Shown piece by piece: positions 59,014 to 63,640 of a stretch of 64,000 nucleotides of DNA; position 1 is the stretch's first letter, and every line of letters starts with the position of its first letter. This DNA comes from Myxococcales bacterium (GTDB taxonomy: Bacteria > Myxococcota_A > Polyangia > Polyangiales > Ga0077539): positions 202,984-266,983 of the forward strand of contig JAEUKH010000018.1 in assembly GCA_016792845.1 (NCBI GenBank), written 5' to 3'. The notes beneath the pieces were generated by a model. It searched no databases and was not told the DNA's origin. It saw nothing but the letters and a program-made list of their open reading frames with translations. The translations under genes were made by a program, and so were the position numbers.

Positions 59014-59589
59014 TCAGGTCGTGCGCGACTTCAAGACCAGGAGCTTGAAGTTCGAGAACTGATTCTGGCCGCAGGTGTAGAGCACCTCGAAGACGGTGCG
59101 CGAGGGCGTACGGTGATCGGCGATGATCGCGACGTCGCCCTGAAACCGCTGCCCGGCGCGCTCAGCGATGGTGCGCGCGGTCTGGGCCTGGTCGCGCATC
59201 ACCTCAGAGAGCGGGTTGATGATCAGGCCGTTGCCGCCGCCGCGCTTCTGCGAGGGGTCGACGAGGCCGTTGCGGAGCGAGGCGATGAAGCGGCCGTTCA
59301 CCGTGATCGACACGCGCGAGACGATCACCTGGAGGGCGTTCGAGGGCGCGGTGTCGACGGTGGCGTGCGGGAGCCTGAGGTCGTCGCTCTGAGGGATGCT
59401 GCCCGCCGATGACGAGAGCGACTTCAAGAGAAACACCAGAATGATGGTCATCATGTCCATCATCGGGACGACGTTCAGATCTTCCGGGACGTGCTGCTCG
59501 ATCCGGCTGAGCAGCTTGCGGCGCGCCTCGCGCTTGACATCAAGCTCGGTGGCCTTCTTCACACCTTCAGCAGATTCTTTCGAAGCCAT
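59014..59589 (-). CDS. ExbD/TolR-family biopolymer transport protein
   Basis: N-terminal TM (NVVPMMDMMTIILVFLL) and an ExbD periplasmic domain. Confidence 0.8.
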   Translation of the reverse strand: MASKESAEGVKKATELDVKREARRKLLSRIEQHVPEDLNVVPMMDMMTIILVFLLKSLSSSAGSIPQSDDLRLPHATVDTAPSNALQVIVSRVSITVNGRFIASLRNGLVDPSQKRGGGNGLIINPLSEVMRDQAQTARTIAERAGQRFQGDVAIIADHRTPSRTVFEVLYTCGQNQFSNFKLLVLKSRTT

Positions 59590-59616
59590 GGTTCGGGCGT
59601 CTCTCGTCGGTGTGAT

Positions 59617-60237
59617 TCAGCGCAAAATCCCGAGGGTCACCTCGGGGAACATGCACTCTGGGTCAGAGAAATTGGCCGGGGTGTTGTCTTCGGGCAGACG
59701 GCACGCCCCCGTGCGACCTTCGCGAACGGCGTCGATGGTGTGCACCAGCACGCCGTACGGCACCTCGCCGTTCGGCGAGACGTTGATGCTGTGATCGCCG
59801 CCGATCTCGGTCGAGAACTGACGCCGCAGGCTCTGCATGCACTGGGTCAGCGCCGCGAAGTCGTGGGTGTAGCCGTCTTGGTCGGGCGCGCCGCGGTTGG
59901 GCACCGTCAGCGACGCCTGGCCGATGGTGGTGCACCCGGGCATCAAGAAGCCGCCGCCCGCGCCGATGATGTACCCCTGCGGGGTGATCTTGACGGTGAT
60001 GTTAAGACGCTCTTGCCCCGCGGCCGGGCGCGACGACGAACCCGCCGACGGCGCCGGCACCGGGATCGTCGCGATGAACACCGTCGAAATCGACGCCAAG
60101 ATGAACATCAACACGTTCACCACGATGTCGAGAAAGGGTACGATGTTCAGCTCGGTGCTGCGCTCTGCCGCGGTCAGTTCTGGCGGGCGAGCCTTGCGTG
60201 CGATGCGCGCGCGTTGGGCTCCTGAGAACTTCTTCAT
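59617..60237 (-). CDS. ExbD/TolR-family biopolymer transport protein
   Basis: LNIVPFLDIVVNVLMFIL TM and ExbD fold. Confidence 0.8.
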   Translation of the reverse strand: MKKFSGAQRARIARKARPPELTAAERSTELNIVPFLDIVVNVLMFILASISTVFIATIPVPAPSAGSSSRPAAGQERLNITVKITPQGYIIGAGGGFLMPGCTTIGQASLTVPNRGAPDQDGYTHDFAALTQCMQSLRRQFSTEIGGDHSINVSPNGEVPYGVLVHTIDAVREGRTGACRLPEDNTPANFSDPECMFPEVTLGILR

Positions 60238-60274
60238 GACTCGCTCCGAGTGGGGGGGCGACCGGGGCCCTGGC

Positions 60275-60967
60275 TCAAGACTGACGGCCGAGCGTGAGGA
60301 CGTTCGTGAGCTTCATCGCGCTCAGACGAATGTCTTCTTTGATGTGCTTCGACTTGAGGTTGAGCAAGAGGTACCCGACGAAGCAGGTCACCGCGATGCC
60401 GAGGCCGAGCGCGGTGTTGTTCATCGCCTCGGAGATGCCCTGCGAGAGCATCTGCTGGCGGCGCCCGGGGTCGCTCACGCTGCCGAGCGCGCCGAAGGTG
60501 TGGATGAGACCCAAGATCGTGCCGAGGAGGCCGAAGAGCGTCGCGATGTTCGCGAGGATGAACAGCTCGCTCACGCGCTTCTCGACCAACGGGATGACCT
60601 CGTCGACCTTCTCGTCGATCGCCGCCACCACCGCGTCTTCGCCACGGTTCACCTGCACGAGGCCCGCCTTGAACACCGAGAGGATCGGCGCCTCGGCCGC
60701 CTCGCAGAGCTTGATCGCCCGGTCGATGTTGCCCGACTGCACGAGCTTGCTCACCTGAACGATGAGCTCCTTGCTGTCGACGCGGAACTTCGTGAGCAGG
60801 TAGTACGTGCGCTCCGCGATGGTGGCGAGCACCACGATGGCGATGAAAATGTTCACAAAGAACGGCCAACCGAGCTTTTCGTAGAGCCCCGCGAGCCCCA
60901 CCGCCTCTTGTTGGTGCTCTGCATTTTGCTGCGCCATCAAGAGCATCTGCACCAGAGCCGACTGCAT
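60275..60967 (-). CDS. MotA/TolQ/ExbB proton-channel protein
   Basis: Three TM helices with the conserved …SEAMNNTALGLGIAVTCF… channel motif. Confidence 0.85.
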   Translation of the reverse strand: MQSALVQMLLMAQQNAEHQQEAVGLAGLYEKLGWPFFVNIFIAIVVLATIAERTYYLLTKFRVDSKELIVQVSKLVQSGNIDRAIKLCEAAEAPILSVFKAGLVQVNRGEDAVVAAIDEKVDEVIPLVEKRVSELFILANIATLFGLLGTILGLIHTFGALGSVSDPGRRQQMLSQGISEAMNNTALGLGIAVTCFVGYLLLNLKSKHIKEDIRLSAMKLTNVLTLGRQS

Positions 60968-61786: not shown

Positions 61787-62464
61787 ATGTTGCACAGTCT
61801 GGGTCAGCACTTCAAAGAGGGCGGCTGGGGTATGTGGCCCATCGTCTTCTGGGGCGTGTTCGTGATTGCGATCACGGTCGAGCGCACGATGGTGCTCTTG
61901 CGCGCCTCCATCAACAAGGACGCCTTCCTGGCGAACATCCAGAAGTGCATCCTGGCGGGCGATGTGGGCCGCGCCATCAAGCTCTGTTCGAGCGCCAACG
62001 CGCCCCTCGCGAAGATCGTCAAGGCGGGCCTGATGAAGGTCAACCGCCCCGACGCCGAAGTGCAGGCCGCGATGGATGAGGCCGCCCTCCGCGAGCTGCC
62101 GAAGATCGAACACCGCACCTCGTACCTCGCGCTGCTCTCAAACCTCGCCATGCTCTCGGGTCTTCTCGGCACCATCACCGGTCTCATCGCGGCCTTCGGC
62201 GCCGTCGGTGGTCACGGCGAGGGCGGCCCCTCGATCGACCCGGCCCGCAAGGCAGAGCTCCTCGCCGGCGGCATCTCGGAGGCGATGAACTGCACCGCCT
62301 TCGGTCTGATCGTCGCGATCCTCGGCCTCATCGCCTTCGCGCTCCTCAACGGCAAGACGCAGGCGATCGTTGACGACATCAACGAGGGCACCGTGCAGGT
62401 GCTCAACCTGGTGGTCAACAACCGCTCGAAGATCAACGTCGGCGGCGCGAAGGAAGCGGCCTGA
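61787..62464 (+). CDS. MotA/TolQ/ExbB proton-channel protein
   Basis: …GISEAMNCTAFGLIVAILGL… motif. Strong SD AGGAGG 9 nt upstream of the ATG. Confidence 0.85.
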   Translation: MLHSLGQHFKEGGWGMWPIVFWGVFVIAITVERTMVLLRASINKDAFLANIQKCILAGDVGRAIKLCSSANAPLAKIVKAGLMKVNRPDAEVQAAMDEAALRELPKIEHRTSYLALLSNLAMLSGLLGTITGLIAAFGAVGGHGEGGPSIDPARKAELLAGGISEAMNCTAFGLIVAILGLIAFALLNGKTQAIVDDINEGTVQVLNLVVNNRSKINVGGAKEAA

Positions 62465-62555
62465 CAGGCCCCACGGTCTCACTGCGGGGCGCTCGGTCTG
62501 TGGGCGCTTCGCGGTGACACCTCACCAGTGACACGCACGGAGGCATCGACAAACG

Positions 62556-63029
62556 ATGGGTGGCGTATCAGTCGACTCGGGCGGTAAAGGCGGCAAGAAG
62601 GCCACCGACGCCCAGATCAACATGGTGCCGATGATCGACCTTCTGGTGTCGTGCATCGCGTTTCTTCTCATGACCGCGGTGTGGGTCCAGAGCGGTCAGC
62701 TTCAGGCCTCGCAGCCTCGCGGCCCGGCGTCAGACTCCCAGCAGCAGCAGGAGACTCCGCAGGAGCAGCTCAAGATTCAGATCTCGCCGACCGGGCTTCG
62801 GGTGGGCGTGAGCGCGGCCGACATGCGCGACATCGCGCGCAACGGCCAGCGGTTTACTGAGCTTGGCAACGTGCTCCGCACCCGGGTTCAGGCCAACCAG
62901 CAGAACCGCGAGGTCTGGCTTCAGCCCGACGGCGCGGTCAACTACGACGAGATCATCCGCGTGATGGACGTGGTCTACGAGGTGTACGGCAGCGCCGCCT
63001 CGAACCAGGTGACCATCCGCTTCCTGTGA
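62556..63029 (+). CDS. ExbD/TolR-family protein
   Basis: INMVPMIDLLVSCIAFLLM TM and ExbD fold. Confidence 0.8.
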   Translation: MGGVSVDSGGKGGKKATDAQINMVPMIDLLVSCIAFLLMTAVWVQSGQLQASQPRGPASDSQQQQETPQEQLKIQISPTGLRVGVSAADMRDIARNGQRFTELGNVLRTRVQANQQNREVWLQPDGAVNYDEIIRVMDVVYEVYGSAASNQVTIRFL

Positions 63030-63049
63030 AGGGCTAAGAGAGGACTACG

Positions 63050-63640
63050 ATGCCTGTTTCAACGCCCGGCAAGAGCCTGTACCGCCCCGGTCTTTTTCGC
63101 AAAGACGTGGTCGAGAAGTACGCGCTCTACAGCCAGATTCCGCTCCTCACGGTGCGCCGCAAGGTGCTCGGTGGCGGGCACAAGGGTGTCAACACCGACC
63201 TGAACCTCACCTCGATGATCGACTACCTCGTCATCACGGTGGTGTTTCTTCTCTCGCAGTTTGGCACCCAGCAGCAGGTTCAGTCGACCTCGGGGCTCGA
63301 AGTGCCGACGGTGCCTCACGCCGACAACCTCACCTCGGCCCCGGTGGTGTCGATCTCTGACCGCGCCGTCTTGATGGACAGCCAGCGCATCATTTCGCCC
63401 CAGGAGCTCGGCCCCGGCACCGACCGCATCGACCGTCTCTACGAGCGGCTCGACGCGGCCCGCCGCGAGTGGCCCGTGCTTCACCCCGATCGCCCCTTCG
63501 AGGGCGATGTGATCTTTCAGATCGACCGCGGGGTTTCGTGGCAGACGATCAAGACCGTGGCCCGCACCTGCGCGGCGGCGGGCTTTACGCGGCTGAACTT
63601 CGCAGTGACCAAGGGCAACGCGCCCCCCGCCAACGACTGA
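63050..63640 (+). CDS. ExbD/TolR-family protein
   Basis: LNLTSMIDYLVITVVFLL TM and ExbD periplasmic domain. Confidence 0.8.
   Translation: MPVSTPGKSLYRPGLFRKDVVEKYALYSQIPLLTVRRKVLGGGHKGVNTDLNLTSMIDYLVITVVFLLSQFGTQQQVQSTSGLEVPTVPHADNLTSAPVVSISDRAVLMDSQRIISPQELGPGTDRIDRLYERLDAARREWPVLHPDRPFEGDVIFQIDRGVSWQTIKTVARTCAAAGFTRLNFAVTKGNAPPAND

Follow-up and report, generated by a model that had tools for sequence, protein, structure and literature searches.

Two divergently transcribed AglRQS-type gene triads separated by a long control region in an uncultured Polyangiales lineage

A pair of divergently transcribed gene triads was identified in a 64,000-nucleotide stretch (hereafter the window) of contig JAEUKH010000018.1 from a Myxococcales bacterium of the order Polyangiales, and both triads probably encode motors of the AglRQS type. 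The left triad (59014-60967) lies on the reverse strand and the right triad (61787-63640) on the forward strand, with 819 bp between them. Each begins with one MotA/TolQ/ExbB channel gene, after which come two ExbD/TolR genes that differ from each other. In the left triad, BL (60275-60967, -) encodes an AglR-type channel subunit of 230 amino acids (aa), followed by DL1 (59617-60237, -; 206 aa) and DL2 (59014-59589, -; 191 aa), which are ExbD/TolR paralogues of the AglQ type and the AglS type, respectively. The right triad contains the AglR-type channel gene BR (61787-62464, +; 225 aa), DR1 for an AglQ-type plug subunit (62556-63029, +; 157 aa) and DR2 for an AglS-type plug subunit (63050-63640, +; 196 aa).

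The window has a G+C content of about 70 %, and the G+C content at third codon positions (GC3) of all six triad open reading frames (ORFs) was 0.85-0.90, which is typical for real genes in this DNA. BR is also preceded by a strong AGGAGG ribosome-binding site. The Pfam model MotA_ExbB matched BL with 76.3 bits and BR with 82.9 bits (cut-off 22.9), and the ExbD model matched DL1, DL2, DR1 and DR2 with 44, 41.4, 68.6 and 41.7 bits, respectively (cut-off 25.4). All six ORFs were thus confirmed as real genes, and coordinates and Pfam results agree with the original prediction, made from the letters of the DNA, of two divergent triads with one channel and two ExbD/TolR genes per side. BL and BR shared 39 % identity, while the best match of DL1 was DR1 and that of DL2 was DR2 (27 %). 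This in-order correspondence suggests an old duplication of the whole three-gene unit rather than two unrelated sets.

The six proteins were compared with NCBIfam equivalog models of the Tol and Ton systems. The channels scored 48-58 bits for TolQ (cut-off 221) and 21-33 bits for ExbB (cut-offs 135-206), and the ExbD-like proteins scored 25-41 bits for TolR (cut-off 127) and 17-26 bits for ExbD (cut-offs 123-216). Sequence matches of the channels in the PDB were restricted to TolQ chains (E values 6e-8 to 3e-4), and no ExbB, MotA, PomA or GldL chain was matched. BR was searched exhaustively with phmmer against 1.84 billion cluster representatives; 133 relatives reached E <= 1e-30 and 10,473 reached E <= 1e-3, indicating that BR belongs to a narrow subfamily of the superfamily.

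A triad from Anaeromyxobacteraceae (L083; 227, 162 and 193 aa) was picked as reference by its size, gene order and a context that is neither tol nor ton. Its order is that of the aglRQS homologues Adeh_4310-4308 (224, 162 and 194 aa; PMC3169522 Table S3), and the sizes are nearly equal. In BLASTP comparisons with the reference channel, BR displayed 52 % identity (216 bits) and BL 37 % (133 bits). DR1 matched the AglQ-type protein (E 2e-17; 42 % identity over the N-terminal half of the AglQ-type protein), as did DL1 (E 3e-9), which did not match the AglS-type protein. DR2 (E 3e-21) and DL2 (E 7e-23; 32 % identity) both matched the AglS-type protein. A protein search seeded with the Anaeromyxobacteraceae-type sequence returned Anaeromyxobacteraceae-like proteins only, and a published aglR cloning primer, scanned for exact matches against metagenome contigs, gave seven random matches and no Agl-like gene.

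Neighbour-joining (NJ) trees with 200 bootstrap replicates were calculated from 179-211 columns, using eight Polyangiales loci and the reference triad, with TolQ/TolR, ExbB/ExbD and MotA of Escherichia coli as outgroups. All myxobacterial channels separated from TolQ, ExbB and MotA of E. coli with 100 % support. The right and left channels each formed a clade (100 % for both), and the right channels clustered with the Anaeromyxobacteraceae AglR-type channel (100 %), leaving the left clade outside. Among the plug subunits, the first ExbD-like proteins of both triads and AglQ clustered together (100 %), and those of the right triads branched with AglQ (94 %). The corresponding values for the second ExbD-like proteins and AglS were 80 % and 100 %. 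These phylogenies suggest that both triads are arranged in R-Q-S order and that the split between the Q and S types is older than that between left and right triads. A channel phylogeny against references had been proposed as a check of the original prediction; within the limits of NJ, the trees placed the right triad with Anaeromyxobacteraceae (94-100 %) and apart from the E. coli proteins (100 %). On this phylogenetic basis, the right triad is taken to be an orthologue of the aglRQS-type set of Myxococcia. The left triad appears to be an older or fast-evolving paralogue, and its deep position in the NJ trees could be a long-branch effect.

Residues on the proton path were also retained. The transmembrane (TM) Asp in the alignment column of TolR D23 and ExbD D25 was present in all four ExbD paralogues of the window, a second point on which the original prediction had called for a check, and in 36/36 myxobacterial ExbD-like proteins examined. 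In DR1 it is residue 28. In Myxococcus xanthus, the D28N substitution in AglQ abolished proton conductance, gliding and sporulation (PMC3858216). Equivalents of TolQ T145, E173 and T178 were kept in BL, BR and all channels aligned. The two ExbD-like proteins of each triad differ in architecture. DR1 and DL1 display a low-complexity linker of 25-30 residues after the TM helix, Gln-rich in DR1 and Pro/Ser/Ala-rich in DL1. DR2 and DL2 carry an N-terminal cytoplasmic tail of 37-50 residues and the usual short junction between TM helix and domain, with no long linker. The tail of DR2 (about 50 residues) begins with MPVSTPGK, and its TPGK motif is shared with the Anaeromyxobacteraceae AglS-type protein. 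The same Q/S asymmetry is seen in the AlphaFold-based AglR5-AglQ-AglS model of M. xanthus, where the plug is heterodimeric, AglQ has a long linker and the tail of AglS crosses the channel (PMC11761067). Since the proton-path residues and subunit features are kept, both motors look functional from their sequences.

A genome scan with one genome per species detected 404 BR relatives, and the loci of the best 80 were examined. All of these 80 belonged to Polyangia (BR identity 64-91 %), including five Sorangium genomes, Minicystis, Byssovorax, Polyangium and Sandaracinaceae. Of about 74 Polyangiales loci that could be assessed, 70 had the head-to-head pair, with BL on the opposite strand followed by DL1 and DL2, and with DR1 and DR2 after BR. 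Four loci (L028, L030, L045 and L066) contained the right triad without the left triad despite ample left flanks (5-10 kb), therefore the pairing is not universal. One of these four is a metagenome-assembled genome labelled Nannocystis exedens. Identity of BL across the loci was 42-74 %, and BR was far more constrained than BL or any of the ExbD-like genes. Compared with the Sorangium proteins, BR was 68 % and BL 49 % identical.

In Sorangium cellulosum So ceGT47 (L013), the ORF lengths were 202, 187 and 225 aa for the left triad and 219, 188 and 194 aa for the right triad. They match those of a block in strain So ce56 (PMC3169522 Table S3), in which sce2991 (202 aa), sce2992 (187 aa) and sce2993 (225 aa) are listed as AglS, AglQ and AglR homologues, and sce2994 (220 aa), sce2995 (189 aa) and sce2996 (169 aa) as AglR, AglQ and AglS homologues. 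Thus, the window locus is orthologous to a block that had previously been recorded as two sets of the Agl type, with which it shares the six-gene S-Q-R / R-Q-S order. It differs from the So ce56 block in belonging to another, uncultured lineage of Polyangiales and in its flanks, where the left side has pyruvate dehydrogenase genes and the gene of a barrel protein and the right side has fur. The So ce56 block was only tabulated and never studied, and we found no discussion of the head-to-head arrangement in the literature beyond that tabulation.

The divergent intergenic region (60968-61786), noted in the original prediction as a long shared upstream region, measures 819 bp, and the spacer between the triads in relatives ranged from 276 to 1523 bp (median 794). 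A sigma70-like element facing the right triad (61404-61431, +) reads TTGACA-16 nt-TATCAT with 11/12 matches and is the sole sigma70-like site between 58600 and 64000. The same element had been predicted at 61403-61432 with a 17-nt spacer; its existence was borne out, while the spacing was corrected to 16 nt. The BR ATG follows 355 nt downstream of the element, implying a leader of about 350 nt. Close relatives have the same extended promoter motif, TTGACA...GGTATCAT. A relaxed pattern of the promoter occurred on the BR-facing strand in 15/69 related spacers (55.9 kb), Sandaracinaceae loci included, and was found neither on the opposite strand of the spacers nor in 2.19 Mb of flanking strand-bases. 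Fifteen matches in spacers against none elsewhere are good evidence, at the level of sequence, that the element is a real promoter of the right triad with a leader of 130-420 nt. No promoter of the left triad was identified in this region.

The spacer was poorly conserved apart from two short blocks. Within the putative leader, a conserved block (61605-61641, +) reads GAAAT..CAGTGGC..GGGTCGTGTA, and its core GTCGTGTA was invariant in six close relatives. The predicted fold of the window's putative leader is more stable than that of shuffled sequences (z = -2.86), and the consensus structure of the block was weak (-5.97 kcal/mol). An Rfam search of the spacer yielded no family and one sub-threshold chance match; with the weak consensus structure, a riboswitch or other known RNA was rejected. 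The conserved TGGC block was also considered as a sigma54 element, a reading rejected by eye because its spacing departs from GG-N10-GC. Fur regulation of the triads was likewise rejected because no match to the Fur-box consensus was found within three mismatches. The small ORFs that the original prediction saw in the spacer did not hold up, as none passed the GC3 filter and conservation of the spacer is poor outside the two short blocks.

The right triad is followed by a further gene, designated gene X, which begins 29 nt past the DR2 stop codon and is cut by the window end (63670-64000, +). The flank beyond the window was read from an identical assembly contig of 23.7 kb (L001), on which gene X is complete (10621-11604, 327 aa) and is followed by fur, an M50 peptidase gene and a gene with a FliH domain. 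The FliH-domain protein (L001 13131-13652; Pfam 53.6 bits) is encoded beside the M50 peptidase in a lineage that is not expected to be flagellated. The original prediction had observed no TonB or TolA gene on either side, and this holds past the window edge; a tonB gene just beyond that edge, named there as the finding that would speak against an Agl-type assignment, was absent from the L001 flank.

The product of gene X is predicted to be bitopic, with a short cytoplasmic N-terminus, one TM helix and a C-terminal domain of about 270 aa that contains two conserved Cys. Homologues of X directly follow the right triad in 53/57 loci, including loci without the left triad: X follows the right triad in L030 and L066, L028 is cut just downstream and none was detected in L045. 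X is not found downstream of the Anaeromyxobacteraceae triad, and a 564-aa gene upstream of that triad showed no relationship to X. Neither the single protein nor a 27-sequence profile of X matched any entry in Pfam, NCBIfam or the PDB, it lacks both a TonB_C domain and a Pro-rich linker, and a protein search with the 110 N-terminal residues encoded in the window found nothing. With a topology like that of TolA, TonB and GltG, and by virtue of its tight synteny with the right triad, X is a candidate motor partner. We regard as possible, though rather doubtful, a more specific scheme in which the Polyangiales maintain two ancient AglRQS paralogues as a head-to-head module of two motors around one long control region, and in which X, with its TolA/TonB/GltG-like topology, would serve the right motor as a dedicated output or regulatory adaptor.

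On the left side, DL2 is followed by a gene for a 414-aa protein (57356-58600, -) and then by pyruvate dehydrogenase genes. The 414-aa protein has a signal peptide and a beta-barrel-like C-terminal half ending in Phe, with a sub-threshold match to OMP_b-brl. Elsewhere in the window, the scanned ORFs encode housekeeping functions (dapA, dapB, mreBCD-PBP2-rodA, hemA and an extracytoplasmic function sigma factor). No TonB_C, FHA-TonB (GltG-like), giant TPR (GltD-like), TolA or Pal protein was encoded in the flanks or among the 37 scanned window ORFs, a set that covers the window except for a few candidate ORFs and several ORF-poor stretches.

In M. xanthus, two Agl-type sets are located at separate sites, M1 (aglRQS, MXAN_6862-6860; 245, 162 and 194 aa) and M2 (MXAN_3003-5; 260, 173 and 193 aa) (PMC3169522). 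Haliangium also has two separate Agl-type sets, while Anaeromyxobacter has a single set of 224-226, 162-164 and 194 aa (PMC3169522). Like M1, each triad of the window consists of a channel gene and then two TolR-like genes in R-Q-S order, the sizes of the right triad (225, 157 and 196 aa) being close to those of M1 (245, 162 and 194 aa). Both plug subunits carry the TM Asp, with AglQ D28 corresponding to D28 of DR1, the Q type has the long linker and the S type the long N-terminal tail, and the trees join the right triad to the Myxococcia-type triad. In contrast to M1, the right triad stands head-to-head with a second, paralogous triad and has gene X behind it. The left triad, as a second complete Agl-like triad, would by gene content be the natural analogue of M2, which unlike the left triad does not adjoin aglRQS. 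Similarity to the 5:2 motors TolQ-TolR and ExbB-ExbD extends to the superfamily and the proton-path residues (TolQ T145/E173/T178 and TolR D23). The triads differ from these motors in having two different plug subunits per set instead of a homodimer, in the absence of TolA, TolB, Pal or TonB neighbours and in their sub-cut-off scores.

With a probability of about 75 %, we interpret the locus as encoding two paralogous AglRQS-type (TolQR-like) inner-membrane motors that are driven by the proton motive force, with a long control region between them from which both are transcribed in opposite directions. Both triads display the order of channel gene, AglQ-type gene and AglS-type gene that characterizes the AglRQS group as delimited by phylogenomics (Luciano et al., 2011; PMC3169522), and the tree placement (by NJ with limited references) and the TM Asp in both plug subunits agree with this group. 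Scores above the TolQ and TolR cut-offs, the single TolR and the tolA-tolB-pal neighbourhood of Tol-Pal systems were all lacking, as were scores above the ExbB and ExbD cut-offs, a nearby tonB and a Fur box as expected for Ton systems. The original proposal that the triads resemble AglR-AglQ-AglS rather than ExbB-ExbD-TonB or TolQRA is therefore backed by the equivalog scores, the trees, the So ce56 listing and a flank without tonB.

For stoichiometry, partners and the gliding role, we infer the following model by analogy with M. xanthus. Five BR (or BL) subunits would surround the TM helices of one AglQ-type and one AglS-type plug subunit (5:1:1). Proton flow via the conserved Asp/Thr/Glu pathway would produce a power stroke, which may be passed through a membrane-anchored adaptor to a complex in the periplasm and outer membrane. 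The right triad likely drives a Glt-type trans-envelope complex used in gliding and is probably transcribed together with gene X from the conserved sigma70-like promoter with its leader of about 350 nt. The left triad would be an older and faster-evolving paralogue whose proton-path residues are intact. Because the second Agl-like set of M. xanthus is dispensable for gliding, the term gliding motor can be inferred for the right triad only.

Several points weigh against the AglRQS interpretation. The NCBIfam equivalog models are mostly proteobacterial, and failing them is weak evidence. The trees were calculated by NJ only, from 179-211 columns, and the deep position of the left clade may be a long-branch artefact. 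The placement was based on one Anaeromyxobacteraceae triad, a published table and E. coli outgroups, with no sequences of M. xanthus AglRQS or M2 and none of myxobacterial TolQR or ExbBD. No glt, cglB, aglZ or mglA gene was found among the scanned ORFs of the 64-kb window, and the second gene after the right triad is fur, a neighbour shared by the closest relatives only.

It is possible, but in our view unlikely, that both triads are AglRQS-family motors of which neither drives gliding, serving other Glt- or Nfs-like machines (for surface polymer or spore coat) or an M2-type task. In M. xanthus, AglRQS also powers the Nfs spore-coat machine, and of the two sets only M1 is required, M2 being dispensable both for gliding and for sporulation (PMC3858216). 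AglR of M. xanthus binds the TonB-like proteins GltG and NfsG, and the M2 channel binds neither. Moreover, core AglRQS/GltDEG sets occur in non-gliding bacteria (PMC3169522), and the scanned window ORFs included no glt genes. However, the right triad was closest to the single aglRQS-type set of Anaeromyxobacteraceae in the NJ trees, and BR is under strong constraint, with 64-91 % identity across the order. Sorangium, which carries the same locus, glides. Its genome also contains Glt homologues, those of So ce56 being sce2906-2921, about 70 genes from sce2991-2996 (PMC3169522).

It is considered quite improbable that one or both triads are ExbB-ExbD1-ExbD2 sets that energise TonB-dependent transport across the outer membrane, with tonB located elsewhere. 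A layout of one ExbB and two ExbD genes (exbB-exbD1-exbD2) is also found in TonB systems, so that the layout of one channel and two ExbD genes, on which the original prediction relied, is not diagnostic by itself. The fur gene two genes past the right triad and the beta-barrel-like gene after the left triad would also fit such a role. However, fur and the barrel-like gene adjoin the triads only in the closest relatives, while the triads are conserved order-wide. The ExbB and ExbD equivalog scores were 17-33 bits against cut-offs of 123-402, the PDB matches were to TolQ and to no ExbB chain, the flanks and scanned window ORFs contained no TonB_C domain and no Fur box was detected within three mismatches. 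The Sorangium orthologues were, in addition, placed with AglRQS by phylogenomics (PMC3169522).

An identity of one triad with the TolQ-TolR part of Tol-Pal can practically be dismissed: although the best similarity in curated models and the PDB was to TolQ and TolR, the scores were 4-5-fold under the TolQ and TolR equivalog cut-offs, each set contains two different TolR-like genes, no tolA, tolB, pal or ybgC lies next to either triad, and the true Tol-Pal cluster of M. xanthus is a separate locus (MXAN_5753-5757).

Two paralogous AglRQS-type motors thus remain our interpretation, and the locus is real but largely ordinary, its arrangement having already been listed for Sorangium. What is new here is the order-wide pairing, the right triad as a probable aglRQS orthologue, the conserved promoter and putative leader, and the conservation of gene X downstream. 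These results add an uncultured lineage of Polyangiales to those with members of the AglRQS motor family and indicate that the head-to-head pairing of Agl-type sets is a conserved feature of the order and not a quirk of Sorangium. A distinct output of the second Agl-like motor, a role of gene X as motor partner and control of a gliding-type motor through a leader can now be tested. The findings are of modest interest and do not overturn current understanding.

Two other gene groups of the window were also recorded. A complete rod-shape cluster, mreB-mreC-mreD-PBP2-rodA (41426-47065, -), is located about 12 kb from the motor genes. Published models connect the Agl motor with the MreB cytoskeleton as a possibility (PMC3858216), and the nearness of the two loci here is probably a coincidence. 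A gene at 30630-33410 (-) encodes a 926-aa homologue of the eukaryotic major vault protein (MVP), with the Pfam domains MVP_shoulder, Vault_3 and Vault_4. In phmmer, residues 334-855 matched the rat and human MVP chains (E 5e-14), and a bacterial MVP-like gene of nearly full length merits a separate look.

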